Shown one piece after another: positions 37,742 to 53,123 of a stretch of 64,000 nt of DNA. The translations under genes were made by a program, and so were the position numbers. The notes under the pieces were generated by a model. The model was not told where the DNA came from. It worked only from the letters and a program-made list of their open reading frames with translations, and searched no databases. Source of the stretch: Bacteroidales bacterium (GTDB lineage: Bacteria > Bacteroidota > Bacteroidia > Bacteroidales > UBA7960); contig PWON01000204.1 in NCBI GenBank assembly GCA_003557385.1, positions 6,853 through 70,852 of the forward strand, in the 5' to 3' direction. How positions within the stretch are numbered: the first letter of the stretch is position 1; every line of letters starts with the position of its first letter.

Positions 37742-39169
37742 TTAAAAATACAAGTCCCTTTTTCCGGATTTGATCTGTCCGATCTTTTCCTTGAGCTTGG
37801 CCACCTTTTGTTCCTGCCCAAGCTCTTTGATTTTGTCGTCAATTAGCCTGTAACCCGCTTTTTTGGTTTCCTCACCGCCATAATCCTCCAGATATTCAGC
37901 CAGTGTAAGCAATGCATTGGGTGTACAATACCTTTTGATAAAGCCCGGTACGGAAAATTCCATAAAGTGTTCGCCGGTGCGACCGAGCCGGTAACAGGCC
38001 GTACAGAAAGACGGGATGTATCCCGATTTGATCAGTTCGTCCATAATCTCGCCCAGTGACCTGTTGTCGTTGATCTGGAACTGGCCCTTGCTTAAATCCT
38101 GCTGATCATGCTTTCCTTTGGAGTAACCGCCCAACTCAAGGTTGGTACCACCATCAATTTGCGAAACCCCGAATCGCAGGATCTGATCACGGATATGAGA
38201 CGGTTCGCGGGCCGTAAGTATCATGCCTGTGTATGGGACCGCCAGGCGAAGAATCGATACCAGCCGCACGAATTCATCGTCTTTGACAAGCCGGCTTTTA
38301 TCAATGTCGAGCGACATGGCATTCTGTATCCTTGGGAAAGAGATTGTGTGCGGACCCACATTGTAAACCGCTTCGAAGTGGTTTACATGCCTCACGAGCC
38401 CCATCACTTCAAAACGCCAATCGTACAACCCGAATAAAGCGCCGATGCCCACATCATCGATACCTGCTTCCTGCGCCCTGTCGAGCGAAGTCAAACGCCA
38501 TTCATAATTTCTTTTGATGCCACCCAGATGAACCTTCTTATAAGTTGGTTCATGATATGTTTCCTGGAAAATCTGGAAAGTCCCGATGCCGGCATCCTTG
38601 ATGGTACGAAATCCCGGGATGTCAAAAGGCGCTGCATTGATGTTTACCCGCCTGATCTCCCCGTTCTTATGCTTAACACCATACACAATTTCAACGGTTT
38701 CGGCTATGAACCCGGCAGAATATTTTGGATGTTCACCATACACCAGGATCAGCCGCTTGTGACCCTGATCGATCAACGCCCTGGTTTCGGCGATCAATTC
38801 CTCACGGCTTAAGGTAATGCGCCTGACCCCTTTGTTGGAAGCACGAAAGCCACAATACTGGCAATTATTGGTACACAAATCACCCACATAAAGCGGAGCA
38901 AACAACACAATGCGTTCGCCATACACTTTTTCCTTGAGCATGCGTGCCCCTTCCTTGATCTCTTCGACCAGTCCGGGGTCTGTGGCATTGATCAGCACTG
39001 CCGTTTCCTCGAGCGAAAGGCGTTTTTTATCAAGCGAAGCCCCAATTACGTCCCGCACCCGTTGCTTATCTGCTTTTGTATTGTTTATAAAATTCCATAT
39101 CTCTCCTGAATCAATAAACGGAGCCATGCGTTTGTCTGCAATGCTGTATTTCTCAGGGTGGTAAATCAT
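37742..39169 (-). CDS. hydG: [FeFe]-hydrogenase H-cluster maturase, radical SAM protein HydG
   Basis: CTNNCQYCGF radical-SAM motif, ThiH-like core, and a C-terminal Cys motif (CTACYRLGRTGEHFMEF...YC) characteristic of HydG. Confidence 0.88.
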   Translation of the reverse strand: MIYHPEKYSIADKRMAPFIDSGEIWNFINNTKADKQRVRDVIGASLDKKRLSLEETAVLINATDPGLVEEIKEGARMLKEKVYGERIVLFAPLYVGDLCTNNCQYCGFRASNKGVRRITLSREELIAETRALIDQGHKRLILVYGEHPKYSAGFIAETVEIVYGVKHKNGEIRRVNINAAPFDIPGFRTIKDAGIGTFQIFQETYHEPTYKKVHLGGIKRNYEWRLTSLDRAQEAGIDDVGIGALFGLYDWRFEVMGLVRHVNHFEAVYNVGPHTISFPRIQNAMSLDIDKSRLVKDDEFVRLVSILRLAVPYTGMILTAREPSHIRDQILRFGVSQIDGGTNLELGGYSKGKHDQQDLSKGQFQINDNRSLGEIMDELIKSGYIPSFCTACYRLGRTGEHFMEFSVPGFIKRYCTPNALLTLAEYLEDYGGEETKKAGYRLIDDKIKELGQEQKVAKLKEKIGQIKSGKRDLYF

Positions 39170-39254
39170 TATAAAAACATTTGCTATTGCCCAAACAAAA
39201 TTAAGCAATATTCAGATAATAAAGTAATTTAAATGCCAGAATACCGGAAAAGAA

Positions 39255-39428
39255 TCACAGGCGAATTTTTAAGCCGTCATAAGCCAGAAGAACATGCTCA
39301 GGAAGATCCCGGCTAACCTCCTTGTGCGTACCAATAAAATGACTCATATGGGTGATATAGGCTTGCTTCGGGTTAACCTCTTTGATCACCTGCAACGCCT
39401 CTTCAAGTGAAAAATGAGAAATGTGTTT
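39255..39428 (-). pseudogene. In-frame 3' continuation of the MBL-fold hydrolase gene beyond an internal TAA
   Basis: The same frame reads KHISHFSLEEALQVIKEVNPKQAYITHMSHFIGTHKEVSRDLPEHVLLAYDGLKIRL*, which is the conserved C-terminus of PhnP-like MBL proteins. Confidence 0.7.
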
Positions 39429-40034
39429 TTATTTTCGGAGCGCATTGATAACCAACACATTGCTGCCTTTTATTTTTTCTTTTTCCTGTTCACTGATATG
39501 GCTGGCATCGGTAATATAGGAAAAATCACCCACCCTGAAACCAAACACCTGCATTTTGTGGTGCTCGACCTCTATGGGCGTAAACAACAAACCGTTAATG
39601 GAAAAAGGATTGTGGTTAATGATATGAAAATGCAATTGCGGGGCGCCGAAAAATCGTTTCTCTTTGAGAATATACGGAAACTCTTTGTTGATACTGTCTA
39701 TAACCGCATCGCTGGCATAAATGTCCACCGTTTTGTTCAATACATAATTGAATGCACGCACATCATCCAGGCCGGCAATATGATCGCGGTGCCCGTGGGT
39801 AAATAATATGGCACCGATGTCCTCTACCTTTTCCCTGATCATCTGGTAACGGAAATCAGGCCCGCAATCAATCACATAATGGGTTCCCTCTACCTCCAGC
39901 ATCACGGAAGTCCTCAGCCTGGAATCGCGCGAGTCATCACTGGTGCAAACACGGCAGTCGCAGGCAACCACGGGTACGCCCGTTGATGTACCGGTGCCGA
40001 GAAAAGTGATGGTCATTGGTTTGTTCAGAGGCAT
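39429..40034 (-). CDS. MBL-fold metallo-hydrolase (PhnP-like), truncated by an in-frame TAA at 39429..39431
   Basis: TFLGTGTSTGVP and HxHxDH (THGHRDH) motifs. The ORF stops about 58 codons before the expected end. Confidence 0.8.
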   Translation of the reverse strand: MPLNKPMTITFLGTGTSTGVPVVACDCRVCTSDDSRDSRLRTSVMLEVEGTHYVIDCGPDFRYQMIREKVEDIGAILFTHGHRDHIAGLDDVRAFNYVLNKTVDIYASDAVIDSINKEFPYILKEKRFFGAPQLHFHIINHNPFSINGLLFTPIEVEHHKMQVFGFRVGDFSYITDASHISEQEKEKIKGSNVLVINALRK

Positions 40035-40060
40035 AAGTAACGTATATCGTATAAATATGA

Positions 40061-40984
40061 TTAATAGATCAATTCTTCAACCTGCTCCCTGGCTTCTTCC
40101 ATGGCATTCCTGTTGGCCAGGCCATTATTTACGGGATCCCCGTCCCATACACGTTTATAAAAATACAGTGTGCCCAGCTGCACTTCAGGATCAAGATTAT
40201 CATAAAGCAAAATGCTCTCGATCCGGGGTCTGTGGCCGGCACAGTGGGTGACCAGGGTCATCGATTTCATCCAGGTTGCTCCCGACACCAGGTTGGTGGC
40301 ATATATGCCCGGAGGCGGTACAAGCTTTTCTTCGGTATCGGTGGTGCTGCCCACCACCACATGGCTGGATTCCATGCCCTCAGCCAGGGTCCCTATATAC
40401 AAAGTGCCTTTGATGATATACTGGTGGTCCAGGTATGCATTGGCGCGCTGAATATTGCCTTCCGACAAGGCCTTCCTGATCTTGGTGGAACTGACCGTTT
40501 CATTTTCTATCATCTGCAGGGGAATCTCTTCCACTCCAAATCCCATATCGCGGCTCAGGCGATGCAGATAGGAGTAGTCACCTTTCCTGGCATATCCAAA
40601 ATGATGGTTGTGGCCAACAACCACCACTCTGGCGCCCAGGTGCCCAATCAACATGTTGACGGCAAAATCCCGGGATGTCGTCTTCGAAAATTCCAGTGAA
40701 AAGGGGATGATGATCAGGTTTTCCAACCCAGCCTTTTGCAGCAGTTCGATCTTTTCCTCCTGTGAATTGATCATTTTCAGATTTTCCTGATCGGGATACA
40801 ATACCTTGCGGGGATGGGGATAAAAAGTGATGAGCGCAGACTCCCCGTCAATATCCCGGGCAATTTCATTTAACCTGTTAATAATCAGCTTATGTCCGAT
40901 ATGGACCCCATCAAAACTACCGGTGGTGACCACCGCCCTGCTGATTTTCCCTGCAGCCTCGGCTGTATGATAAAATACCCTCAT
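40061..40984 (-). CDS. ribF: Bifunctional riboflavin kinase / FMN adenylyltransferase
   Basis: GSFDGVHIGH nucleotidyltransferase motif and a C-terminal riboflavin kinase domain. 307 aa. Confidence 0.92.
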   Translation of the reverse strand: MRVFYHTAEAAGKISRAVVTTGSFDGVHIGHKLIINRLNEIARDIDGESALITFYPHPRKVLYPDQENLKMINSQEEKIELLQKAGLENLIIIPFSLEFSKTTSRDFAVNMLIGHLGARVVVVGHNHHFGYARKGDYSYLHRLSRDMGFGVEEIPLQMIENETVSSTKIRKALSEGNIQRANAYLDHQYIIKGTLYIGTLAEGMESSHVVVGSTTDTEEKLVPPPGIYATNLVSGATWMKSMTLVTHCAGHRPRIESILLYDNLDPEVQLGTLYFYKRVWDGDPVNNGLANRNAMEEAREQVEELIY

Positions 40985-41610
40985 TTGACCAGATATGCCA
41001 GTTTTTCCAGTGATGTTACAATATCGTATTCTTCCAGGTGTATGCCCTCCGGAACAGTCAGGGGTACCGATGTATAATTCAGTATCCCCCTGATCCCTGC
41101 ATCCAGTAGCATTTTTGCCACATCATGAGTAGCTTCCGGAGATACCGTCAACACGGCAATCTGAATGTTTTCCTTTTTAACAAACTCCTTGATTTGGCTG
41201 ATGTGGTGGCATGGGATGCCGGCCACAATGCGGCCGGTCTTCTGCAAGTCATTATCGAAAGCGGACACAATAGACAGTTTGTCTCTTTTTCCGGAAAAAT
41301 AGCTGGTAATGGCCCTGCCCAGATTACCCATCCCCACCAGGATGATGTCCTGGCCTTTCTCGCTGTCAATGATCTTTCCGATCAGCGCCACCAGGTCCTT
41401 GATCACATACCCCTTGCTCTGGCTTCCTGAGTAGCCGATAAGCATCAGATCCCTGCGAACCTGTACCGGTGTCAGATTCATCATTTTGGCCAGCTCATGT
41501 GAGTATATGTTCGTTTTGCCTTCATGGATGCTGTTGTATAAAATCCGCCTGTATTGACTCAGGCGCTCAATCGTTTTACCCGGTAATTCTAAATAGGTAT
41601 TTTTTGCCAT
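40981..41610 (-). CDS. rex: Redox-sensing transcriptional repressor Rex
   Basis: Winged-helix N-terminus (IERLSQYRRIL...VQVRRDL) and a Rossmann NADH-binding motif, GMGNLG. Confidence 0.9.
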   Translation of the reverse strand: MAKNTYLELPGKTIERLSQYRRILYNSIHEGKTNIYSHELAKMMNLTPVQVRRDLMLIGYSGSQSKGYVIKDLVALIGKIIDSEKGQDIILVGMGNLGRAITSYFSGKRDKLSIVSAFDNDLQKTGRIVAGIPCHHISQIKEFVKKENIQIAVLTVSPEATHDVAKMLLDAGIRGILNYTSVPLTVPEGIHLEEYDIVTSLEKLAYLVK

Positions 41611-41631
41611 GGGATCAATAATTTATTTGGA

Positions 41632-42759
41632 TTAATCTTCGAGTTTGAATATTATGGTAAAGCAACTTCCCTGATCCGGTGTACTTTCCACTTCAATATT
41701 TGCCTGATACAGGTCTAGCAGCTTTTTAACGATCGACAAGCCCAGCCCGCTGCCGCTGATATGCCTGGTATGTTCACTTTTTATCCGGACAAAATCTTCA
41801 AACAGTTTTTTGGTATCCTCCGGTTTCATCCCGATGCCGGTATCTTCGACGCTCAGCATCAATAGCCCGTTTTCCTTGCGAATGTTCACATCTACCCTTC
41901 CACCCTGTTTGTTGTATTTTATTGCATTGGATACCAGGTTATTCAGTATGATCTCCATCTCCTGGCTGTCGGCCTGCAGGGCGATTTTTTCACTGCAATT
42001 CAGATAAACATCCACGTCTTTCTGAATAGCCAGCGGCTGAAAAGAGTCTATGCATTGCTGGGCAATCTCGCACAGGTGGATCATTTCCAGCTTGCGTTTT
42101 TTCTTGCCGCTTTCAATGCGTGTAAAATCGAGCATGTCCATAATCAGGTTCCGCATTCCCTGTATCCTGTGTAAAGAACGGTCAATGATCTCCCTGTAAT
42201 CGTCCATTTGGTCGCCGAACTTTTTTTTCTGCATCATTTCAAGGTACCCCTCCACGGCATTGATCGGTGCCTTGAGTTCGTGCGACAGCACCGACAAAAA
42301 CTGAAAACGCACCTGACGTCCCTCCACATTCATTTTTTGCGTCATGCGCTGCAGAAAACGCTGTTTTGTAATGGTCTCGATGGATGCACGCAATTCTTTT
42401 GGGGTAAATGGTTTGGGAACAAAATCGTAGGCTCCCTGGCGGGTGGCTTTCACGGCCAGTTCAAGGGATGCATATGAGGTGATCATGACCACCACAAGGT
42501 CCATGTTCTGCTGGTTGATGTATTCCAGCACATCTATCCCTTGTATTCCCGGAAGTTTGTTGTCGAGCAACACAATATCCATGGGTTTTTTCTTGAGGAT
42601 ATCCAGGGCTTCTTCGCCACTTTCAGCGGTTTCTACAATAAACCCGATATCCTCGTCCATAAACGGATAGCTCACAGTATAATTCTCCAGGATCCGGGAA
42701 ACGCCGCTGCGGATACCAGGTTCATCATCAACCACCAGGAGGTTTAAAGTTTCCATCAC
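41632..42759 (-). CDS. Hybrid receiver (REC) - HisKA - HATPase_c sensor kinase, cytoplasmic
   Basis: N-terminal REC (LLVVDDEPGIRSG...VLLDNKLPG), H-box SHELKAPIN, N-box NLVSNAIKYN, G-boxes EDTGIGM and GSGLGLSIV. No TM segments. Confidence 0.85.
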   Translation of the reverse strand: MMETLNLLVVDDEPGIRSGVSRILENYTVSYPFMDEDIGFIVETAESGEEALDILKKKPMDIVLLDNKLPGIQGIDVLEYINQQNMDLVVVMITSYASLELAVKATRQGAYDFVPKPFTPKELRASIETITKQRFLQRMTQKMNVEGRQVRFQFLSVLSHELKAPINAVEGYLEMMQKKKFGDQMDDYREIIDRSLHRIQGMRNLIMDMLDFTRIESGKKKRKLEMIHLCEIAQQCIDSFQPLAIQKDVDVYLNCSEKIALQADSQEMEIILNNLVSNAIKYNKQGGRVDVNIRKENGLLMLSVEDTGIGMKPEDTKKLFEDFVRIKSEHTRHISGSGLGLSIVKKLLDLYQANIEVESTPDQGSCFTIIFKLED

Positions 42760-42760
42760 A

Positions 42761-43159
42761 TCAGAGTTTTAGCAATTTATTGATCTCCTTGTGCAACTGG
42801 TCCATCCGGATACCTTTGTCCAGGAATAGATCTGCCTTCACCCAGTCCTGTTCTTCTTCTGTGGTCACATCGAAAAGCATGCCTGTTTCGGCCGTTACGG
42901 CAGAAACGATGATGATGGGCAGATCAGGATACATGCTTTTGATCTTGTGGCAAAGGATGAAGCCAGTGTCCTGGTTTTCCATCATCAGGTCAAGGATGGC
43001 CAGGTCGGGGCGCATGCGCTGGATAATGTCTTCGGCCTCTTTTTGTGTTCCCGCCGATATTGCCTCAAATCCCATATCCTTTACCCCATGCCTGAGTTGA
43101 AACAGATAATCGGCATCATCGTCAACGATCAGAATGGTCTTTTTCTCTTTTTTTAGCAT
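42761..43159 (-). CDS. Stand-alone response-regulator receiver protein
   Basis: ILIVDDDADYL...DLAILDLMM. About 132 aa with no output domain. Confidence 0.85.
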   Translation of the reverse strand: MLKKEKKTILIVDDDADYLFQLRHGVKDMGFEAISAGTQKEAEDIIQRMRPDLAILDLMMENQDTGFILCHKIKSMYPDLPIIIVSAVTAETGMLFDVTTEEEQDWVKADLFLDKGIRMDQLHKEINKLLKL

Positions 43160-43169
43160 AATTATTTTT

Positions 43170-45218
43170 TTAGCGGATAAGCGCCTCATCCGGTGTTTTT
43201 TTTTGCTGTTCTTCCGACTTTCGGGGCAAACTCACAAAAAATGTAGATCCGGTAGGGCCTTTGGCCTGATTATTATTGGATTCTACCCTGACATTGCCCC
43301 GGTGCATCTTGATGATGCCATAGATAATGGGCAGCCCGAGCCCTGTTCCCTGACCTGTTTCCTTGGTGGTAAAGAAAGGTTCAAACATCCTCTCTATATT
43401 CTCCTTGGAAATACCCGTACCGGTATCTGCAATACGGAATTCCAGTGTTTTACTTCTCTCTTTGTCATCAACTGCCACAATAAGCTTGCCTCCCTTTGGC
43501 ATTGCATCCACGGCATTTTTAAACAAGTTGGCAAACACCTGTACCATCTGGTCATGGTCACATTCAAACATGGGGTTCTGGGTGTTGATCCGGATGTCCA
43601 GGTCAATATTTTCTGGCAACACGATCGCCTTTAGCCCATTATTGATCAAATGCTTAACGTTTACCCTGTCAATGGTCAGCTTACTCTTCCGGGCAAAGTT
43701 TAGCAGTCCGCCTACAATCTTTTTACACCGGTCGGCCTGTTCAACGATCATTTTCAGATCGCGGTACAGGGGTGAAGAAGGATCCATGTCATCCAGCAAA
43801 ATATGGCTGTACATGATCACCACCCCCAGGGGGTTATTCACCTCATGGGCGATCCCGGCGGCCAATTGACCCATGGAGGCAAGTTTTTCACTTTGCTTCA
43901 GCGCAGCCTGCGTGGAGGCCAGCTTCTTGTTTGACACGTCCAGTTCCGTGATGTATTCATGCAGTTTATCTATGGTATAGGGCAGGCACATTTCCGATTC
44001 GGCAAGGCCCTGCAGGATGGCTACGGCATGTTCATAGCAGGTGTCGTAACCGCAAGCCCCGCAGTTGAGTTCGTCTTCCGCTTCTTTTTTTCCAAACCTT
44101 TGCAAAACTTCACGGATCTCCTCTTCCCTGGGAAGGCCTGGAAAGCGCTGGTCATCAGCTTCAAAACTGCGGTCGAGTTTTAATTGCAGGAAAGTATTCA
44201 GATCTTTCTGCCATTGCTCCAAATCAATCAGGTCGTAACGCCTTTGGGCAAAATTGGAGATGTTCTTTCGCTTGTAAAAAAACTTGTGTTTGTTGCTCAT
44301 GCCCGGCCCGTTGATGCATCCGTTGCAACAAAGCAGGTCAAACATTTTGGCTTCAAGGTAGCCCTCTTCAAATTCACGCAGTACTTCGATGATGTCGTGC
44401 CGGCCCTCAGCCACCACGATGTCGCCCTTCACAAAATCTTCTTCCAGGTCAACTGTTTGCAACATGCCCCCACTGATAGGGAAAATGGCACCTTTGCCGG
44501 CAACCGGGGGATCAAACTCATGGGGCTGTACCTTATTTTCATCCAGGTCCTTTTCGGCAAACATCCGGCGCAGTTCAACAAAAGAGATGACTTCATCAAT
44601 CAATCCCCTGAACTGATCTTCGGCTGCTTCCACCTTTTTGGCGATACAGGGTCCGATAAAAACAATTTTTATTCCATCGCCGTATTTTTCCTTCAATACT
44701 TTGGCCGTAGCAATCATGGGCGAAACTACCGGCATCAGCGAATCAATGATCTGTGGGTGGTGCTTCTCCACATAACTCACAATAGCCGGGCAGGATGTGG
44801 AGATCAATGGACGCTTGGGGCCTGATTCCAGCAATTCCTTGTATTTATTCGCGATGAGTTCGGCTCCGAAGGCCACTTCATTGACATAGTCAAAGCCCAG
44901 GGCCTTGATCATACCCACAAAATGCCGGTAATCCTTGATATCTGTGAATTCGCCCGCAATACTGGGCGCCACAATGGCAGCCACTTTATCCTGGCTGTTA
45001 AGTAGAACCTTTACCTTATCGATAGAGAAAGCGAACATTTTTGCATCCCGGCTGCACACCCGGATGCAGTTGCCACAGGCAATGCACCTGCTGGGTATGA
45101 TCTCAGCCTGGCCGTTCATGATCCGGATGGCCTTGGCAGGACATTCACGCACACAGGTATAACAAACCTTGCACCGGTCTTTCACGGTATAAATGATCTC
45201 TTTATTCTTTTCCGACAT
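43170..45218 (-). CDS. Sensory [FeFe]-hydrogenase-like domain fused to a histidine kinase
   Basis: 2x[4Fe-4S] ferredoxin motifs (CKVCYTCVRECP, CIACGNCIRVC). H-domain motifs TSCPAIV, GPCIAKKVE, CCNGCINGPG. Then Cx2Cx4Cx16C (CGACGYDTC...C), HisKA (AHEVNNPLG) and HATPase_c (DTGTGI, GTGLGLPI). Confidence 0.85.
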   Translation of the reverse strand: MSEKNKEIIYTVKDRCKVCYTCVRECPAKAIRIMNGQAEIIPSRCIACGNCIRVCSRDAKMFAFSIDKVKVLLNSQDKVAAIVAPSIAGEFTDIKDYRHFVGMIKALGFDYVNEVAFGAELIANKYKELLESGPKRPLISTSCPAIVSYVEKHHPQIIDSLMPVVSPMIATAKVLKEKYGDGIKIVFIGPCIAKKVEAAEDQFRGLIDEVISFVELRRMFAEKDLDENKVQPHEFDPPVAGKGAIFPISGGMLQTVDLEEDFVKGDIVVAEGRHDIIEVLREFEEGYLEAKMFDLLCCNGCINGPGMSNKHKFFYKRKNISNFAQRRYDLIDLEQWQKDLNTFLQLKLDRSFEADDQRFPGLPREEEIREVLQRFGKKEAEDELNCGACGYDTCYEHAVAILQGLAESEMCLPYTIDKLHEYITELDVSNKKLASTQAALKQSEKLASMGQLAAGIAHEVNNPLGVVIMYSHILLDDMDPSSPLYRDLKMIVEQADRCKKIVGGLLNFARKSKLTIDRVNVKHLINNGLKAIVLPENIDLDIRINTQNPMFECDHDQMVQVFANLFKNAVDAMPKGGKLIVAVDDKERSKTLEFRIADTGTGISKENIERMFEPFFTTKETGQGTGLGLPIIYGIIKMHRGNVRVESNNNQAKGPTGSTFFVSLPRKSEEQQKKTPDEALIR

Positions 45219-45228
45219 AATCCAAACC

Positions 45229-46950
45229 TTATTTTTTATTGAATTGCCTGCCCAACCAATCCAGGGCTGTGGGGTGATCAGGCAACAGCCGTTTGCCCTT
45301 ATACAGGGATTTGATGGCGGGATTCTCTCCCGGATGTTTAATTGGGTTGGCTTTCCCCATTTCCACGCATATTCTCTTACGCGATCTCACATGCTCAAAC
45401 CCCCGGCTGACAGGTTGTCCTCCACCACCTGCACAGCCATCCAAACAGGCCATCACTTCAATATAATGGATATCCTCCCTTTGTTCGTCCTCCAGGTGTC
45501 TTATGTAATCTTCCGCTTCGGCAATGCTGCTTACCCAGGCAAACCCGATCTCCTTTCCGCCAATGGGCACTTTTATTTCGCGCCGCCCCGACAGATTCTT
45601 GGGCAGGTTGAATTTAAATTGCTCTTTTTTCGGATCGGCCATTATCCGGAACAATTCACGGGCAACCGCTTCGGCCTTGCCGCCCGAATAACCGGCTTGC
45701 CATCCGGCTGATGAACCGGTATCAAAAGGCCTGTCGGGCTGTTCCTCTTCCATTTCGGCAATATCCAGGCCAAACCCTCTCATGAGCTGGAAAAATTCCC
45801 GGACTGTCAACACAGCATCCACATCCGATACCCCTTTGTGGGTGTTTTCTTCCAGGGAGGCTTCGTATTTTTCAGCCACACAGGGCATCACCGCCACCAA
45901 AAAGATCGATTCCGGGTCCATTCCCTCCTGAACTGCATAGCTGGTTTTGACCAAAGTACCCAGGATTTGTTGCGGAGACTTAACTTCTGACAGGTGCACA
46001 AGATTGCCGGGACGGAACGATTGCACATATTTTACCCACGATGGGCAACAGGACGACATCAAAGGAAGGGCGCCACCACCCCTTTCTGCAAGCCTGTCAG
46101 AGAGTATGCGGGCTTCCTCAAGCACATTTACATCGTGGGCGGTACCCAGGTCAAACACCCTGAACGCCCCACATCTTTTCAGGGCCGCGACAATACGGTC
46201 CCTGGCTTTTACTTTCGATTTAAACCCCAGTGTATCCGTTACCGAAGCGACCACAGCAGGACTGATGAAAAATATGACCTGTTTTTTGTCTTTACTCAGT
46301 GCCGCCTGTACTTTTTCCACATGCGAAATGTCCAGCAGGGCAGCCGTAGGGCAAACCTGTATACACTGTCCGCAATGAATGCAACTTGATTCGTTGAGCC
46401 CTTTGTTAAAAGCACTGTTCACCCTGGTCTGATTGCCGCGTGAAATAAAATCAATGGCAGTAACCCGCTGCACCTCCTCACAAATGCGGACACAACGGCT
46501 GCACAGTACGCATTTTGCAGGGTCACGGGCCACACTGGTACTGGAATAATCAGGATACCAGGTATTCTTTTTTCCAAAAAACCTTCGCTCCTTCACATTC
46601 ATTTCTTCGGCCAACCATTGAAGCTCACAGTGTCCGTTGCGCTGGCAATACAGGCAGTCGTCCGGATGATTCGACAATAAGAGTTCCACCAGTGATTTGC
46701 GGGCCTTTATCACACGTGGTGAATTGGTCCTGACCCGCATGCCCTCCTCCACAGGATGGGAACAGGATGTGATCAGGTCGCGCTTGCCAAGGACCTCCAC
46801 AACACACAAACGGCAGGCACCTGTTGGTGAAAAACGGTTCATGTGACAGAGCGTGGGAATCCGGAAGGCATTTCTACGTAAGGCAGACAACAATGTCTCC
46901 CCTTCCTCTACAAGGATTTGTTTATTGTTTATTTCGATCTGGAATTCCAT
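45229..46950 (-). CDS. hydA: [FeFe]-hydrogenase catalytic subunit HydA (multimeric, NADH/ferredoxin-linked type)
   Basis: N-terminal 2Fe-2S and His-ligated 4Fe-4S (HPDDCLYCQRNGHC), and 2x[4Fe-4S]. Canonical H-cluster motifs SSCCPSW, MPCVAEKYE, EVMACLDGCAGGGGQP. Confidence 0.92.
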   Translation of the reverse strand: MEFQIEINNKQILVEEGETLLSALRRNAFRIPTLCHMNRFSPTGACRLCVVEVLGKRDLITSCSHPVEEGMRVRTNSPRVIKARKSLVELLLSNHPDDCLYCQRNGHCELQWLAEEMNVKERRFFGKKNTWYPDYSSTSVARDPAKCVLCSRCVRICEEVQRVTAIDFISRGNQTRVNSAFNKGLNESSCIHCGQCIQVCPTAALLDISHVEKVQAALSKDKKQVIFFISPAVVASVTDTLGFKSKVKARDRIVAALKRCGAFRVFDLGTAHDVNVLEEARILSDRLAERGGGALPLMSSCCPSWVKYVQSFRPGNLVHLSEVKSPQQILGTLVKTSYAVQEGMDPESIFLVAVMPCVAEKYEASLEENTHKGVSDVDAVLTVREFFQLMRGFGLDIAEMEEEQPDRPFDTGSSAGWQAGYSGGKAEAVARELFRIMADPKKEQFKFNLPKNLSGRREIKVPIGGKEIGFAWVSSIAEAEDYIRHLEDEQREDIHYIEVMACLDGCAGGGGQPVSRGFEHVRSRKRICVEMGKANPIKHPGENPAIKSLYKGKRLLPDHPTALDWLGRQFNKK

Positions 46951-46979
46951 AACAACAAAAAATTGCGCGATGACAGGCG

Positions 46980-48929
46980 CTATTTAATGATTACCGCATT
47001 GAATTTGCAAACGTCAAAACAAGTTCCGCAACCGATGCATTTATCCTGCACTATAAAATGCGGGTACCGGGGCGTTCCGATGATGGCGTCGACCGGACAT
47101 TTCTTAAAACAGACCGCGCAGCCCGTGCAAGCATCCACGTTAATTTCATAAACCCTCAGGTCGGTACATACGCCTGCCTCACATTTCCTGTCAAAGATAT
47201 GGGCATCAAATTCGTGCTTAAAATGCTTCAGTGTATTGAGGACAGGATTGGGTGCCGACTTGCCCAGCGAGCATAAGGATGTGTCACTGATCACAGAGGC
47301 CAGGCTTTTCAGTTGCATGACCCCTTTAAAACGTTCCAGCGTTTGAAATGAATTGGTATCGGAAGGCTTGCGGGTAACTTGCTCCATGACTTCCAGCATC
47401 CGTGCTGTCCCCTCCCTGCAGGGAATGCATTTGCCACAACTTTCTTTTTTAAAGAAGGCTGTGAAATAGCGGGCCAGATCCACCATGCAGGTCGCCTGGT
47501 CGAGCACTACAAAAGCACCGCTGCCAAGGGCAGCACCGATGCTTTCCAGGGACTCATAATCCACCCTTGCGTCGAGGTTTTCGGCTGTAATATAGCTGCC
47601 ACTGTTGATGCCCAGAACGATGGCCTTGAATGGCAGTTTGCCCGCCAGGCCGCCACCTGCCCCTTCGATGATTTCCCTGAAAGTGGTCCCCATCAGTACC
47701 TCAACCGTCCCATAATTCTTCAGCCGGCCGGAAAGGGTATATAACTTTGTCCCCTTGCTGCTTTCGGTACCCAGTGAGCGAAACCATTCGGGACCGTTTT
47801 TAACGATCAGGGGAACATTAAACAATGTTTCTACATTGTTCACCACAGTGGGCTTATTCCACAGACCTCTTTCTGCCGGATAGGGCGGTTTCGAGGCAGG
47901 CATGGCCCGTTTGCCCTCAATGCTGTTGTTCAGTGCAGTTTCTTCACCGCAAACAAACGCACGGGCACCTTCTCTGATTACCACATCGATATTCACCCCT
48001 GAATCAAATATATGATGCCCGGTCAAGCCGTATGCACCAGCCTGCCCAATGGTTGCCTGCAAGCGTTTGATGGCCAGACGGAATTCTTTGCGGATAAATA
48101 TATAAGCCTTGTTAGCACCGGTGGCGTATGCTGCGATCAGCACAGCCTCTATCAAACGGTGGGGGTTGCTTTCTATAATGGCACGGTTCATATAACTGCC
48201 CGGATCACTCTCCACGGCATTACACACAAAAAACTTCTGATCACTCACTGTGTTCAGTGCTGCACTCCACTTTTTCCCCGCCGGGAATCCCCCGCCACCC
48301 CGGCCGGCCAAACCACTTTCTTCTATCATCCTGCATACTTCGGCAGGTGTGTGGCGTGCAATGGTGTCGATAAATGCCTGGTAACCGCCCTTCGCGATAT
48401 ATTGTGCAGCTGATACGGGGTCTATGATCCCACAATGTTCCAGCAACATCCTGTGCTGGCCGGAAAAAAATGGATGCGATTCAATGCCAGGCACATCCTC
48501 CCAGGGCTGCAAGATGGTGTCAGTGTACTGACCCAATACAGGCAGGTCGGGCAAATTATCATTCAGAATATCATCCAGCAGCGACTGTACTTTTTCGGCT
48601 GTGACACGCGAAAAAGACAACCTGGCCTTGCCGGGCAGCTGTACATCCACCAGGGGTTCTTCCATGCAAAACCCCACACACCCACCTTCCACCAGGTCGG
48701 CATCAATGTCGTGTTCCTGCAAATATTCCCGGATGGCCTCAAATGTTTTATCCGCACCGGCAATGCGGCCACAGGTAGCCATACCCACATAAATCATAGG
48801 CTTATGAACCCGCTCACCGGCGATGTAAGACAATGATTTTTTTATATCAGTGCGGTCATCCCTCCGGGGGTCTGACAATACCTGTTTGGTAAGGAATTGC
48901 CGGATGTCTTTATCTGGTTCGGGACTCAT
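46980..48929 (-). CDS. hydB: NuoF-like flavoprotein subunit HydB of the multimeric hydrogenase
   Basis: FMN/NADH motifs (GRGGGGFPAGKKW), N3-type cluster ESCGKCIPCREG, and a C-terminal 2x[4Fe-4S] (CTGCAVCFKKCP, CIGCGTCFDVC). Confidence 0.9.
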   Translation of the reverse strand: MSPEPDKDIRQFLTKQVLSDPRRDDRTDIKKSLSYIAGERVHKPMIYVGMATCGRIAGADKTFEAIREYLQEHDIDADLVEGGCVGFCMEEPLVDVQLPGKARLSFSRVTAEKVQSLLDDILNDNLPDLPVLGQYTDTILQPWEDVPGIESHPFFSGQHRMLLEHCGIIDPVSAAQYIAKGGYQAFIDTIARHTPAEVCRMIEESGLAGRGGGGFPAGKKWSAALNTVSDQKFFVCNAVESDPGSYMNRAIIESNPHRLIEAVLIAAYATGANKAYIFIRKEFRLAIKRLQATIGQAGAYGLTGHHIFDSGVNIDVVIREGARAFVCGEETALNNSIEGKRAMPASKPPYPAERGLWNKPTVVNNVETLFNVPLIVKNGPEWFRSLGTESSKGTKLYTLSGRLKNYGTVEVLMGTTFREIIEGAGGGLAGKLPFKAIVLGINSGSYITAENLDARVDYESLESIGAALGSGAFVVLDQATCMVDLARYFTAFFKKESCGKCIPCREGTARMLEVMEQVTRKPSDTNSFQTLERFKGVMQLKSLASVISDTSLCSLGKSAPNPVLNTLKHFKHEFDAHIFDRKCEAGVCTDLRVYEINVDACTGCAVCFKKCPVDAIIGTPRYPHFIVQDKCIGCGTCFDVCKFNAVIIK

Positions 48930-49393
48930 AGGGCAGCACTTTCTTTTTCCCTGAACGAGTGTACAAGGTCTTTCAAGATGTCCAGGGTAATATTTGTATA
49001 AAACGTCTCATTGACCTCAATCAGGGGGGCAAGCCCGCAGGCACCGATACAACTGACCACCTCAAGGCTGAACAGGCCGTTTTTATCGGTTTCGCCATGG
49101 CTAATCTGCAGCAATTTTTCCAGTTCCTTCAAAATTGTTGCCGATCCTGCTACATGACAGGCCGTTCCGTGACAAAGGCGGAAATGGTATTTTCCCAGCG
49201 GCCCGAAGCGAAAATTGTCGTAAAAAGTGGCCACGCCAAAAATCTTGTTTATGCTGATATCCAGATAGTCTCCTACAATATGGATGATCTCCTCCGACAA
49301 AAAACCGTATTCATCCTGAATGGACTGCAGCAGGGAGATCAGGTCTTCACGACGGCGATTGGGGAATTTATTCAGTATGTGCCCTAGCTCCAT
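48926..49393 (-). CDS. hydC: NuoE-like [2Fe-2S] subunit HydC
   Basis: CHGTACHV...VSCIGACGLAP thioredoxin-like 2Fe-2S motif. 4-nt overlap with hydB. Confidence 0.9.
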   Translation of the reverse strand: MELGHILNKFPNRRREDLISLLQSIQDEYGFLSEEIIHIVGDYLDISINKIFGVATFYDNFRFGPLGKYHFRLCHGTACHVAGSATILKELEKLLQISHGETDKNGLFSLEVVSCIGACGLAPLIEVNETFYTNITLDILKDLVHSFREKESAAL

Positions 49394-49410
49394 GGTTGGA
49401 TTATTGAGTG

Positions 49411-49428
49411 TTGATATTCAATTCACAA
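49411..49428. promoter_or_regulatory. Candidate Rex operator upstream of hydC
   Basis: TTGATATTCAATTCACAA compared with the Rex consensus TTGTGAAnnnnTTCACAA. The right half-site is perfect and the left has 3 mismatches. It lies 18-35 nt upstream of the hydC ATG. Confidence 0.4.
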
Positions 49429-49500
49429 TATAAGAGAAATTTTTTAATACTCAATAACAAGATTATAGTCAATCATTTAAGTTATTAGTAATCAATGGAA

Positions 49501-49508
49501 CAAAGATA
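49501..49508 (-). promoter_or_regulatory. Candidate -7 promoter box (TAnnTTTG) for the hydCBA-led gene string
   Basis: The minus strand reads TATCTTTG about 108 nt upstream of the hydC ATG. The Rex-like site sits between this box and the start codon. Confidence 0.3.
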
Positions 49509-49644
49509 GTTAAAAAAAGAGAGCTGCCTTGCATGTGTGTAAAAAGTGGTGGATTTCTCCATTAATGTTATTTAGATTAAGTCTTAAATAGCACAATAAA
49601 ATAAAGATGTGAAGGAATTAACTGGTATTCTTAAAAGCTTTCCT

Positions 49645-49652
49645 TATTTTTG
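49645..49652 (+). promoter_or_regulatory. Candidate -7 promoter box (TAnnTTTG) for the ferredoxin-hydS-phosphatase operon
   Basis: TATTTTTG lies 45 nt upstream of the ATG at 49697. Confidence 0.33.
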
Positions 49653-49696
49653 TTAACCCCCAGGGGATTCATTCATGAATCATCAATGAAGAAAGC

Positions 49697-49954
49697 ATGG
49701 GCAAGACACAAACCGGTGAAATAGTTATTTGCATGGGCAGCAGTTGCTTTTCCAGGGGAAACAAATACAGCCTTGAACTGATAAAAAAATACCTGAAGGA
49801 AAGGGGGCTGAAAGACACCTTCAGGTTCAAGGGGTCACATTGTTTTGGGGAATGCGAACACGGACCGGTTGTGATTATTGATGGCATCAGGTATACAGAG
49901 GTTCAGCCTGACAAGATCACCGAATTGATGGAGAATCATTTTGCCAACCATTGA
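49697..49954 (+). CDS. Thioredoxin-like [2Fe-2S] ferredoxin (NuoE/HfsA-like)
   Basis: 85 aa with four Cys (CMGSSC...CFGEC). Confidence 0.78.
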   Translation: MGKTQTGEIVICMGSSCFSRGNKYSLELIKKYLKERGLKDTFRFKGSHCFGECEHGPVVIIDGIRYTEVQPDKITELMENHFANH

Positions 49955-49980
49955 ACCGCCTAACCAATCCAAACCAGGGC

Positions 49981-51837
49981 ATGAAAATCATCAAAATAGA
50001 CCATGACCGCTGCACCAGGTCCTATGCCTGCATCAGGGCCTGTCCGGTAAAAGCCATCACCACCAATGGCAGGAACGGCATGCCGGAAGTCAACCATGCA
50101 CGCTGCATTGGCTGTGGCAGTTGTTTAACGGTATGTGCCGCCAGCGCCGTATCCCACTTCAGCGACCTGGAACATACGGCATCGCTCCTTGAATCAAAAC
50201 ATAAGGTGGCGGCCATTGTAGACCCCACCATCAGCGGGGAGTTCCCCGACATTACCGACTACCGGAAGTTCGTCGAAATGATTCGTACACTCGGTTTTGA
50301 TTATGTTAATGAAGTATCGTTCGGGGTGGATCTTGTGGCGAAAAAATACCATGACCTGCTGTCCGATTTTAAGGGCAAATATTACCTGATGTCCGGTTGC
50401 CCGAGCATGGTATCGTATGTGGAAAAATTTTTTCCGGAACTAACCGAAAACCTCTCCCCCATTGTCACCCCGATGACAGCCAGTGCCAAAGTGGTCCGCA
50501 AGGCATTCGGGAAAGAACTGAAAGTGGTTTTCATAGGCCCCTGCCTTTCTGCAAAGCACGAAGCCAAACTGCACAGGGGCACCGGAAAAGTGGATGCGGT
50601 ATTGACCTTTAAAGAGTTGCGCACTTTATTTACCCGTTTCAAGATCAAAGAAGCCAAGGTGGAGTACTCCGATTTTGACAAGCCCATCGGCTATCTCGGC
50701 TCCCTGTTCCCTATCAGCAAGGGCATTGTGTATGCAGCCAGACTGGATGATTCGTTGTTTGACGGGAAGGTGATCACAGTAGAAGGGAAAAACAATATGC
50801 TCGACCTGGTGGATGAATTTAATGAGCAGGCCGAATTCCTGAAAAAACACTTCAATGTGTTCTACCATGGCGGGTGTATCGTAGGGCCGGGTACCACCGA
50901 TACCTCCAATAAGTTCCTGCGACGGACCATGGTGGTAGATTATGTACACAAGCGCCTGAAAGATTTTGACAAGAACCAATGGGAACATGACATGGATGAA
51001 TACCTCGGGCTTGATCTGTCGCGCACTTTCAACAAGGATGACCAGCGTCTGCCCCAGCCTGGCAATGAGCAGATAGAAGAGATTTTAAAGAGCCTGGGCA
51101 AGACCACCGAACTCAATGCCGCCTGTACGGCCTGTGGGTTCAGGAGCTGCCGCGATTTTGCCGCTTCCATTTCCCAGGGGCTATCAAGGCCCGAAATGTG
51201 TCTGAACTACTCCATAAAAAATAAGCAGGATTATATCAGGACACTAAAAAACAACAACGAAAAACTGAAAAAGCAGCAAGAGGGATTGCTTGACAAGGAA
51301 CAATCGCTTCTGGAAGAAAACCAGAAACTAAAACTGCAATCCGACACCATATCCGCCTTGCTAAAAAACCTGCCCTCCGCGGCAGTGATTGTTGACGACA
51401 AACTGAAAGTGATAGAATCCAACGACAGTTTTATCAAAGTGCTGGGCGAAGACGCCGCAATGATCAACGAAGTGATCCCAGGCCTGGTTGGTGCCGATTT
51501 AAAAACCCTGCTACCCTATAACCTCTATAATTTGTTTACCTACGTGCTGGAAAATGACAAGAACATTGTGGGCAAGGATGTGGAACATGACGACCGCCTG
51601 CTCAATGTCAGCATTTATTCGCTGAAACCAAACAAAATCGTTGGCGGGGTGTTCCGCGACATGTATGTGGCAGAGGTGCGCCAGGAGGAGATCATCAACA
51701 GGGTGAATGAGGTCATTGATGAAAACCTGAAAATGGTCCAGCAGATCGCCTTTTCCCTGGGCGAAGGGGCAAGTACGACAGAGAAAATGCTGAATTCCAT
51801 TATTGAGACTTATCGGATGAAGAAGAAGAAGGAATAG
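49981..51837 (+). CDS. hydS: HydS-like sensory [FeFe]-hydrogenase paralog with Cx2Cx4Cx16C motif, coiled coil and C-terminal PAS domain
   Basis: Ferredoxin motifs (CTRSYACIRACP, CIGCGSCLTVC). H-domain motifs SGCPSMV, GPCLSAKHE, YHGGCIVGPG. Then CTACGFRSC(x16)C and a PAS-like C-terminus. Confidence 0.85.
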   Translation: MKIIKIDHDRCTRSYACIRACPVKAITTNGRNGMPEVNHARCIGCGSCLTVCAASAVSHFSDLEHTASLLESKHKVAAIVDPTISGEFPDITDYRKFVEMIRTLGFDYVNEVSFGVDLVAKKYHDLLSDFKGKYYLMSGCPSMVSYVEKFFPELTENLSPIVTPMTASAKVVRKAFGKELKVVFIGPCLSAKHEAKLHRGTGKVDAVLTFKELRTLFTRFKIKEAKVEYSDFDKPIGYLGSLFPISKGIVYAARLDDSLFDGKVITVEGKNNMLDLVDEFNEQAEFLKKHFNVFYHGGCIVGPGTTDTSNKFLRRTMVVDYVHKRLKDFDKNQWEHDMDEYLGLDLSRTFNKDDQRLPQPGNEQIEEILKSLGKTTELNAACTACGFRSCRDFAASISQGLSRPEMCLNYSIKNKQDYIRTLKNNNEKLKKQQEGLLDKEQSLLEENQKLKLQSDTISALLKNLPSAAVIVDDKLKVIESNDSFIKVLGEDAAMINEVIPGLVGADLKTLLPYNLYNLFTYVLENDKNIVGKDVEHDDRLLNVSIYSLKPNKIVGGVFRDMYVAEVRQEEIINRVNEVIDENLKMVQQIAFSLGEGASTTEKMLNSIIETYRMKKKKE

Positions 51838-51851
51838 CAAGTAAGAGGTGA

Positions 51852-51878
51852 TTAGTAGTTAGTAATTAGTATTTAGTA
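51852..51878 (+). repeat. Heptameric micro-repeat (TTAGTAN) x4
   Basis: ttagtag ttagtaa ttagtat ttagtat, in the 101-nt spacer between hydS and the phosphatase gene. Confidence 0.8.
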
Positions 51879-51938
51879 TGAATTTATTACTTGTTGGGCG
51901 TTGGTTACACAGGTGTAAGTTTTTGGTTGAAAAATGGT

Positions 51939-53123
51939 ATGGGTGAGGGTGTTTATATAGAAGTTGGGTCGGCTTTGCGTAATCATGCCGGAGAGCGCAT
52001 TTGCGGCGACATCTTTCTCTCTGAAAGAGTCCGTGAGGAAGGTCGGACCGTGGTGGTGCTGTCAGACGGCATGGGGCACGGGGTCAAAGCCAATCTGCTG
52101 GCTACCCTGACAGCCACCATGGCATTGAACTTTACCAAAGAACACAAGGATGCACACAAGATCGCAGAGATCATCATGAATACCCTGCCCGTTTGCAGCG
52201 AACGCAAGATCAGTTATGCCACCTTTACCATTGTGGATATCGAACAGGAAGGGCAGTGCACGATACTGAACTATGACAATCCCGATGCCATCGTCATGCG
52301 CGGCAAAGAGCCCTATCAGCCCGATTGGCAACATATCACCATAGAAGCGGGTGAATATTCCCGGAAAAAGATCAAAGCCTGCAGTTTCCAGGCCCTTAAG
52401 GAAGACCGTGTGTTGCTGATGACCGACGGCATCACCCAATCGGGTCTTGGTCGTGATCAGTTCTTGCTGGGTTGGGGCGCCGAAGCTGTGGAAAAACACT
52501 TTTTTAACCTGGTAAATGAACAGCCCGACATTTCCGCCTCCAGGCTGGCCTCCCTGGTGGTGAACAAGGCCCATACCAACGACGGGTATCAGGCAAAAGA
52601 CGACACCAGTGCTGCTGTGATCTACTTTAGAGAACCCCGGCGGCTGCTTATCTGTTCGGGTCCGCCGTATGAAAAGAAAAAAGACAAGGAACTGGCACAG
52701 GTGGTGAAAAAATTTAAGGGGAAAAAAATCTTATCGGGTGGCACCACGGCAGAGATTGTTTCAAGGGAACTGGATATCGCCATTGAAGACACCCTGGAGT
52801 TTGACGACCCTGATTTGCCACCCATTTCTTACATGAAAGGGATTGACCTGGTTACGGAAGGCATCCTGACCCTGAGTAAAACAGCAGAGATCCTGGATAA
52901 ATACAGCACCCGTACCGAATTGGAAAAAGGGCCGGCAGACCTTATTGTAAGGCAATTGCTGGAAAGTGATGAGATCCACTTGCTGGCAGGAACAGCCATC
53001 AATGTTGCCCACCAGGATCCAAACCTGCCGGTAGAACTTGAGATTCGCCGGTCGGTGATGAAAAAGATTGCACGTATCCTGGAGGATAAGTTTTTGAAAG
53101 AAGTGAGTTTACGGTATATATGA
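51939..53123 (+). CDS. SpoIIE/PP2C-family serine phosphatase with an uncharacterised C-terminal domain of about 170 aa
   Basis: ICGDIF...VLSDGMGHGVKA and MTDGITQSG motifs typical of SpoIIE-type PP2C. Confidence 0.8.
   Translation: MGEGVYIEVGSALRNHAGERICGDIFLSERVREEGRTVVVLSDGMGHGVKANLLATLTATMALNFTKEHKDAHKIAEIIMNTLPVCSERKISYATFTIVDIEQEGQCTILNYDNPDAIVMRGKEPYQPDWQHITIEAGEYSRKKIKACSFQALKEDRVLLMTDGITQSGLGRDQFLLGWGAEAVEKHFFNLVNEQPDISASRLASLVVNKAHTNDGYQAKDDTSAAVIYFREPRRLLICSGPPYEKKKDKELAQVVKKFKGKKILSGGTTAEIVSRELDIAIEDTLEFDDPDLPPISYMKGIDLVTEGILTLSKTAEILDKYSTRTELEKGPADLIVRQLLESDEIHLLAGTAINVAHQDPNLPVELEIRRSVMKKIARILEDKFLKEVSLRYI

Follow-up and report, generated by a model that had tools for sequence, protein, structure and literature searches.

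In HydDB, [FeFe] hydrogenases of group C1 are listed as 'histidine kinase-linked (putative)' enzymes that may sense H2 (PMC5037454). A C1 gene of the Bacteroidales isolate Petrimonas mucosa (ING2E5A_0849) lies four locus tags from the hnd genes (PMC7768429), and a study of Hydrogenedentota reports C1 proteins that bear a HATPase domain (PMC11406978). The same study describes sub-type V BfuABC clusters in which bfuT, located downstream of bfuA, encodes a 'BfuT' sensor with a His-kinase domain; the examples come from Hydrogenedentota and from Caldithrix abyssi (WP_006928132.1). The gene considered here belongs to this class. It lies in a stretch of 64,000 nucleotides (the window) from a Bacteroidales bacterium (assembly GCA_003557385.1, contig PWON01000204.1, positions 6,853 to 70,852), and its product of 682 residues, called the sensor below, fuses a HydS-type [FeFe]-hydrogenase module to a histidine kinase. 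The HydDB subgroup label C1 is uncertain for the sensor, as the Petrimonas gene is termed C1 (PMC7768429) and kinase-bearing BfuT is termed C3 (PMC11406978); the best-matching HydDB C1 entry has no HATPase domain (PMC11406978).

The hydrogenase half resembles two characterised enzymes, TmHydS from Thermotoga maritima (M2f, group C) and TamHydS from Thermoanaerobacter mathranii (M2e, group D). Both have lost C299 and the proton pathway, contain a Cx2Cx4Cx16C motif that is described for M2e/M2f enzymes, bind an H-cluster, and are slow in turnover (PMC8163306). The sensor shares with them the two [4Fe-4S] clusters, the H-domain, the accessory motif, the missing C299 and proton pathway, and a gene position beside a bifurcating group A hydrogenase.

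The sensor is probably a cytoplasmic kinase that responds to H2 or, less likely, to the general redox state, and it would feed a relay of a receiver (REC) protein and a REC-kinase, which tunes the bifurcating hydrogenase. An earlier note on this DNA, made from its letters alone, had implied that such a system is new. The fusion class and the exact locus layout, however, have already been described from genomes (PMC5037454, PMC7768429, PMC11406978), and the main new contribution of this analysis is the fixed spacing between the accessory cluster and the phospho-accepting histidine.

Domain order and hydrogenase module

The open reading frame (ORF) of the sensor has exactly the boundaries given in Table 1 and contains no internal stop codon; it lies on the minus strand, a detail that the earlier note had not given. 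The ORF and the Pfam matches bear out the claimed order of two [4Fe-4S] ferredoxin motifs, H-domain, Cx2Cx4Cx16C, HisKA, and HATPase_c. With NCBIfam models, the first half of the protein scores as [FeFe] hydrogenase-like and the second as an AtoS/ZraS-like kinase, both below the equivalog cut-off. Pfam detects no PAS (at E <= 0.01), HAMP, or GAF domain in the sensor and no HTH or other output domain, the C terminus being formed by HisKA/HATPase. A transmembrane segment is absent as well (peak 19-residue Kyte-Doolittle mean of 1.48). The protein is therefore taken to be cytoplasmic, and a membrane sensor was rejected. A chance frame or an assembly fusion artefact was also rejected, because the full-length fusion recurs in more than 560 species-representative genomes.

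Residue conservation was counted in an alignment of 198 full-length fused homologues, composed of 119 protein clusters and 79 translated loci, to which all column counts below refer. All eight ferredoxin cysteines are invariant. The remaining hydrogenase motifs appear in the peptides LISTSCPAIV, FIGPCIAKKVE, LLCCNGCINGPG, and CGACGYDTC-x16-C. The neighboring HydA has the canonical motifs SSCCPSW, as the earlier note had stated, MPCVAEKYE, and MACLDGCAGGGGQP (also given as SSCCPSW / MPC / MACLDGC). Alignment of the two proteins places Ser142 of the sensor at the C299 relay position and Cys143 at C300, with no indels between the TSCP motif and the SP motif 25 residues further on. The relay Cys had been read as Ser with the cluster Cys kept, and a better alignment had been named as a possible refutation; the relay Cys is not restored, and the replacement stands.

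The four H-cluster cysteines (143, 191, 298, and 301, equivalent to C300, C355, C499, and C503) are invariant (198/198). The L2 and L3 motif strings, claimed to be retained, are both present, but in L3 only C298/C301 form an invariant pair, with a CxxC spacing where group A has Cx3C, a loop longer by one residue; C297 is conserved in 181 of the 198 homologues (91%). Kinase-less paralogues show the same CxxC arrangement. Gly189 at the M353 position and Leu296 at the M497 position are found in every homologue. TmHydS has Gly and Ser at these positions (PMC8163306); the sensor follows TmHydS at the first and TamHydS, with Leu, at the second. Also invariant are Ala84-Pro85-Ser86, Lys194 (K358), Glu197, and Ser166-Pro167 (S323-P324), which correspond to H-cluster pocket positions of group A. 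These traits of the H-domain are typical of HydS-type [FeFe] hydrogenases, which are putative sensors.

The relay position itself is occupied by Ser in 126 homologues, Asp in 56, Thr in nine, Cys in three, and Asn in two, that is, by Ser, Asp, or Thr in 191/198. The other members of the group-A proton pathway are replaced too: E279 by Tyr126 (Tyr in 185/198), E282 by Leu129, and S319 by Met162, a position that is Ala in most homologues; the R286 position is variable. Judged from these alignments, the pathway (C299, E279, E282, S319) is lost in the sensor. In variants of CpI and CaHydA, Asp at the relay position retains partial activity and Ser or Ala nearly abolishes activity. The Ser/Asp/Thr pattern, taken with these variants, therefore fits an enzyme that is slow but not necessarily dead. 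PDB entries of the CpI C299A and C299D variants are among the structure-search matches.

The AlphaFold2 (AF2) model is confident over most of the H-domain, with a predicted local distance difference test (pLDDT) above 90. The best matches in the fold search are the catalytic [FeFe] hydrogenases T. kivui HydA, T. maritima HydA, CbA5H, CpI, and DdH. No HydS-type structure was found in the PDB by sequence or fold search, which returned only catalytic hydrogenases and isolated kinase cores.

The source genome is a metagenome-assembled genome (MAG) of 2.13 Mb and 80% completeness. It encodes HydE (343 bits), HydF (500 bits), and HydG (495 bits), all above the curated cut-offs, and can therefore make the H-cluster. 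hydE and hydF lie together on contig C13 (13174-15448), apart from the hydG of the window. The genome has four H-domain genes, three in the window and one on contig C120 (C120:3404-4276); the latter is a CpI-like, monomeric-type enzyme of 590 residues with canonical TSCCPGW / MPC / MACPGGC motifs.

The altered signatures (TSCP versus TSCCP, GPC versus MPC, and CxxC versus Cx3C) could also indicate a degenerate H-domain that binds only [4Fe-4S], in which case the protein would be a kinase that senses O2 or iron–sulfur integrity and turns off the genes of oxygen-labile hydrogenases. P1-P3 motifs are hard to find in the HydDB C1 proteins of Hydrogenedentota (PMC11406978), and the second paralogue in the window has lost one ligand Cys. 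TmHydS and TamHydS, however, bind a functional H-cluster despite comparable substitutions (PMC8163306). There is also no variation in Lys194 or the Ala-Pro-Ser motif, whose group A counterparts contact the diiron ligands, and the genome has all three maturases. A degenerate H-domain is therefore highly improbable.

Kinase core and its distance from the accessory cluster

The C-terminal half of the sensor is a predicted class I (HisKA-type) histidine kinase core with all catalytic boxes intact. The H-box AHEVNNPL has an invariant His458, the N box (Asn564/Asn568), G1 (DxGxG, 598-602), and G2 (GxGxG, 624-628) are likewise invariant, and Phe612 of the F-box is kept in 195/198. The nearest solved relative of this core is ZraS (9jfj, E 8e-34). 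A further invariant residue is Cys498 (window 43725-43727) in the second DHp helix, within ADRCKKIV. ZraS has Leu at this place, and the neighboring REC-kinase lacks the Cys. The role of Cys498 may be that of a second, thiol-based redox input or a solely structural one.

The accessory cluster domain precedes the kinase directly. Its four cysteines (386, 389, 394, and 411) are invariant and have the exact spacing of the Cx2Cx4Cx16C signature reported for Thermotoga HydS (PMC8163306), which the earlier note had recognized here and which is also matched by PF04060. The gap between this domain and HisKA measures only 35 residues. From Cys411, the last ligand of the cluster, to His458 there are exactly 47 residues in 198/198 homologues; the other inter-domain spacings vary, with 83-90 residues between C301 and C386 and 101-109 between C191 and C298. 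The linker forms a heptad series of leucines that continues into the DHp helix, of which Leu433 and Leu440 are invariant, Leu419 is found in 195/198, and Leu426 in 194/198. The AF2 monomer contains helices at 412-432 and 437-456, with low confidence, and an ATPase domain with a pLDDT of about 85-90. The fixed register of 47 residues supports, without proving, a direct mechanical link between accessory cluster and kinase. The covalent fusion claimed earlier is confirmed; the kinase boxes are intact and no PAS domain lies between the two halves, and this lack together with the fixed spacing fits direct gating of the kinase by the accessory cluster.

Alternatively, as a general cellular redox sensor, the protein would take electrons from reduced ferredoxin or HydABC through its ferredoxin-type clusters and let the accessory cluster set the kinase activity; the H-cluster would then merely be a slow electron vent or would tie the signal to the ferredoxin/H2 couple. 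The N-terminal 2x[4Fe-4S] region, through which electrons usually enter and leave [FeFe] hydrogenases, is invariant, the cluster that adjoins the kinase is the accessory [4Fe-4S] and not the H-cluster, and Rex, another redox sensor, accompanies the cassette. The complete conservation of the H-cluster ligands and CN-contacting residues (198/198), however, is hard to explain if the H-cluster is dispensable, and hydG lies within the same gene string. A general redox sensor is accordingly held to be unlikely. A related proposal, in which the accessory [4Fe-4S] itself would be the switch, acting through the indel-free 47-residue coiled coil, and the relay would act post-translationally on HydABC or Rex, is doubtful to a similar degree. 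Post-translational action is considered because none of the sampled phyla has a cassette that encodes a DNA-binding partner for the relay.

The cassette, its partners, and its distribution

The features of the sensor and its neighborhood are collected in Table 1. On the minus strand the genes follow each other in the order hydC, hydB, hydA, sensor kinase, REC, REC-HisKA-HATPase, rex, a probable ribF, an MBL-fold gene, and hydG. The intergenic gaps range from -20 to about 30 nt as far as the MBL gene, and ~220 nt separate the annotated MBL ORF from hydG. The HydA ORF (45229-46950) ends 10 nt from the sensor gene. HydABC is the probable regulatory target of the sensor.

Table 1. Positions of the sensor, its domains, and the neighboring genes in the window.
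Feature	Position	Strand	Evidence
Sensor gene, HydS-type [FeFe]-hydrogenase module fused to histidine kinase, 682 aa	43170..45218	-	ORF, Pfam, 198 full-length homologues
Two [4Fe-4S] ferredoxin motifs, residues 10-59, 8 Cys	45042..45191	-	Fer4_10/Fer4 matches
H-domain, residues 78-305	44304..44987	-	PF02906 (Fe_hyd_lg_C) E 4e-52, alignment to HydA, column counts, AF2, fold matches
Accessory Cx2Cx4Cx16C cluster domain, residues 384-413; Cys 386, 389, 394, 411	43980..44069	-	PF04060 'FeS' E 6e-9
Heptad-Leu helical linker into DHp helix, residues 414-448; Leu 419, 426, 433, 440	43875..43979	-	Column counts, AF2 helices
HisKA (DHp), residues 449-511, phospho-acceptor His458	43686..43874	-	PF00512 E 9e-13
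HATPase_c, residues 554-667; N, G1, F, G2 boxes intact	43218..43559	-	PF02518 E 7e-24
hydC-hydB-hydA, trimeric bifurcating-type (A3-like) [FeFe] hydrogenase	45229..49393	-	Pfam: NuoE-like, NuoF-like, HydA motifs
Stand-alone receiver (REC), overlaps or abuts sensor stop codon	42761..43189	-	PF00072
REC-HisKA-HATPase hybrid kinase	41632..42759	-	Pfam
Rex-type redox-sensing repressor	40981..41610	-	Put_DNA-bind_N + CoA_binding
hydG maturase, end of gene string	37742..39208	-	TIGR03955, 495 bits, above cut-off
Divergent second sensor (HydS-like paralogue without kinase, 628 aa) and SpoIIE/PP2C phosphatase	49951..53123	+	Pfam

Relatives of the sensor are common. The best 120 clusters in the protein database are all full-architecture relatives with 53-100% identity, and nearly all of those with a named source come from Bacteroidales. 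Among 301 sampled genomes of the same order, 111 contain a near-full-length match, and the scan of species-representative genomes yields at least 566 loci. In 77 of the best 80 of these loci the match spans more than 95% of the query with an identity of at least 50%, and the other three are cut by a contig end. Bacteroidales MAGs named CSSed come closest, with 77-85% identity.

Synteny was counted in the same best 80 of the at least 566 loci, with those loci as denominator that are long enough to show the feature. HydB and HydC are encoded upstream in 67/67 loci and HydA directly upstream in 64/72. On the other side, a REC gene follows the sensor directly in 69/77, and a REC-HK gene is found within the next two genes in 69/71. 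Rex lies within 8 kb in 28 of the 44 fully flanked loci, downstream in Bacteroidota and upstream of hydC in MAGs of other phyla; a kinase-less paralogue is encoded upstream in 24 of the same 44. The phyla are assigned by MAG labels and are to be read with care: the loci are mostly from Bacteroidota, with further MAGs labelled Planctomycetota, Omnitrophota, Caldisericota, Hydrogenedentota, Fidelibacterota, Nitrospirota, and Pseudomonadota, and the cassette hydC-hydB-hydA-sensorHK-REC-REC/HK recurs across Bacteroidota and MAGs labelled as these seven other phyla. The cassettes of L042 (Thiohalospira), L095 (Hyphomicrobiales), L104 (Alphaproteobacteria), and L045 (Nitrospiraceae) group tightly with Bacteroidota or Planctomycetota, L042 pairing with L071 at 100/100 in the tree. 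These odd placements of MAGs labelled Pseudomonadota or Nitrospirota could be due to binning contamination or recent transfer.

The interpretation in the earlier note is reasonable as regards a sensor, but its description as 'one-component-style' does not hold. A one-component transducer has its input and output (usually DNA-binding) domains in a single polypeptide and uses no phosphotransfer, whereas this protein has no output domain and receivers are encoded next to it, which makes it a sensor kinase of a multi-step phosphorelay. The hybrid kinase downstream has no Hpt and no DNA-binding domain according to Pfam. In the favored H2-responsive reading, HydE, HydF, and HydG would install the [2Fe] subcluster, and the H-cluster would bind H2 and split it slowly. 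The electrons would shift the redox state of the accessory cluster, and the coiled-coil linker would pass this change to the DHp and ATPase domains, altering autophosphorylation. The acceptor of the phosphoryl group would then be the neighboring REC protein, the receiver domain of the hybrid kinase, or both, and the hybrid would relay the signal to an unlinked output. The role would be feedback control of HydABC, which is predicted to be co-transcribed, by H2 partial pressure, in parallel to NADH sensing by Rex and to the phosphatase-linked second sensor upstream.

Several points weigh against this reading. The case for H2 specificity comes from homology alone, and the homologous enzymes are 'putative' sensors too; a literature search found no purification, spectroscopy, or phosphorylation assays of any kinase-fused member. 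The relay residue, whether Ser, Asp, or Thr, could still conduct protons, and real catalytic turnover might then remain. For the coupling step, pLDDT falls below 50 in residues 429-463 (linker/DHp), and a monomer model cannot show a dimeric coiled coil. Lastly, no DNA-binding response regulator is present in the cassette in any phylum sampled. This last observation would also suit a docked 'BfuT' regulatory subunit of HydABC that exchanges electrons with the enzyme, the phosphorelay acting post-translationally on the enzyme or on Rex. The position of the sensor gene directly after hydA, with tight spacing, points the same way, and PMC11406978 treats the gene as a fourth 'T' subunit. The solved HydABC complexes 7p5h and 8a6t, however, contain no such subunit, and orphan response regulators elsewhere in the genome are a simpler output. 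A docked subunit is thus quite unlikely, though less so than a degenerate H-domain.

A sigma-70 promoter and terminator scan of 39000-50100 was uninformative, with 15 promoter-like sites versus 16.1 expected, as Bacteroidota promoters fall outside the consensus used. The Rex operator consensus TTGTGAAN6TTCACAA matched one site, TGTTGATATTCAATTCACAA (49409-49428), with three mismatches, where ~5.3 are expected by chance per window. This Rex-like half-palindrome sits 16 nt upstream of the hydC start and is not significant by count.

The divergent second sensor (ORF 49951-51837) is directly preceded by an 85-residue Cys-rich ORF (49697-49954, plus strand), which probably codes for a small Fe-S protein and shares a transcript with the sensor gene. 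Residue 306 of the second sensor (window 50866-50868) is His at an L3 ligand position where the kinase-fused sensor keeps Cys. Its relatives usually have Cys here (19 of 34), the other residues being Asn (seven), His (six), and Asp (two). In this second copy, [4Fe-4S]H may be bound differently or not at all. In a tree built from the ferredoxin, H-domain, and FeS regions, all sensors separate from HydA (100/100), and the kinase-less paralogues form a single clade (100/100) nested inside the kinase-fused sequences, a nesting that the starred branches force. The phosphatase/PAS-linked paralogue would tentatively derive from a kinase-fused ancestor by duplication and domain swap, with the root placed on a very long HydA outgroup branch.

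Comparison with described sensors

A functional parallel is offered by the [NiFe] group 2b system HoxBC/HoxJ/HoxA, in which a slow, sensor-grade hydrogenase also controls a histidine kinase that regulates hydrogenase genes (PMC5037454). Metal centre and fold are unrelated, and sensor and kinase are separate proteins that are joined via the PAS domain of HoxJ. HoxA is the known output regulator of that system, whereas the cassette described here encodes no DNA-binding response regulator.

Within the [FeFe] enzymes, TmHydS ends in a PAS domain and TamHydS has neither PAS nor kinase, whereas the accessory cluster of the sensor leads straight into HisKA/HATPase. The sensor therefore lacks the PAS domain that follows the accessory cluster and defines M2f, and the kinase takes its place. 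H2 sensing by group C [FeFe] hydrogenases is putative, as is the route by which the signal would leave the protein, and neither TmHydS nor TamHydS has an output that can be measured. With a kinase-fused protein a direct read-out becomes available, as autophosphorylation and phosphotransfer can be compared under H2 and N2 with partners that are encoded next door.

The closest counterparts are the kinase-linked genes named at the outset. Like the sensor, the Petrimonas mucosa C1 protein is a putative H2 sensor acting via a histidine kinase in a Bacteroidales genome and is encoded next to a bifurcating hydrogenase. BfuT clusters share the kinase fusion, the position directly downstream of hydA/bfuA, and, in Bacteroidota, a second sensor upstream of hydC/bfuC: Perlabentimonas gracilis, Tenuifilum thalassicum, and Williamwhitmania taraxaci have two bfuT genes, one downstream of bfuA and one upstream of bfuC (PMC11406978). 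A homologue in a Hydrogenedentes MAG (L080) is 51% identical over its full length and lies in the same cassette. The BfuT study, in contrast, is genomic only, terms the protein HydDB C3 and a 'subunit', and gives no account of REC/REC-HK partners, relay-residue statistics, or a fixed cluster-to-His spacing. The fusion class is well suited to experiments on how H2 would control fermentative, electron-bifurcating hydrogenases in anaerobic members of Bacteroidales and of other phyla. Compared with its hundreds of equivalents, some of them in cultivated strains, the copy in the window is ordinary, and its value is that of an assayable model rather than of a new type of system.

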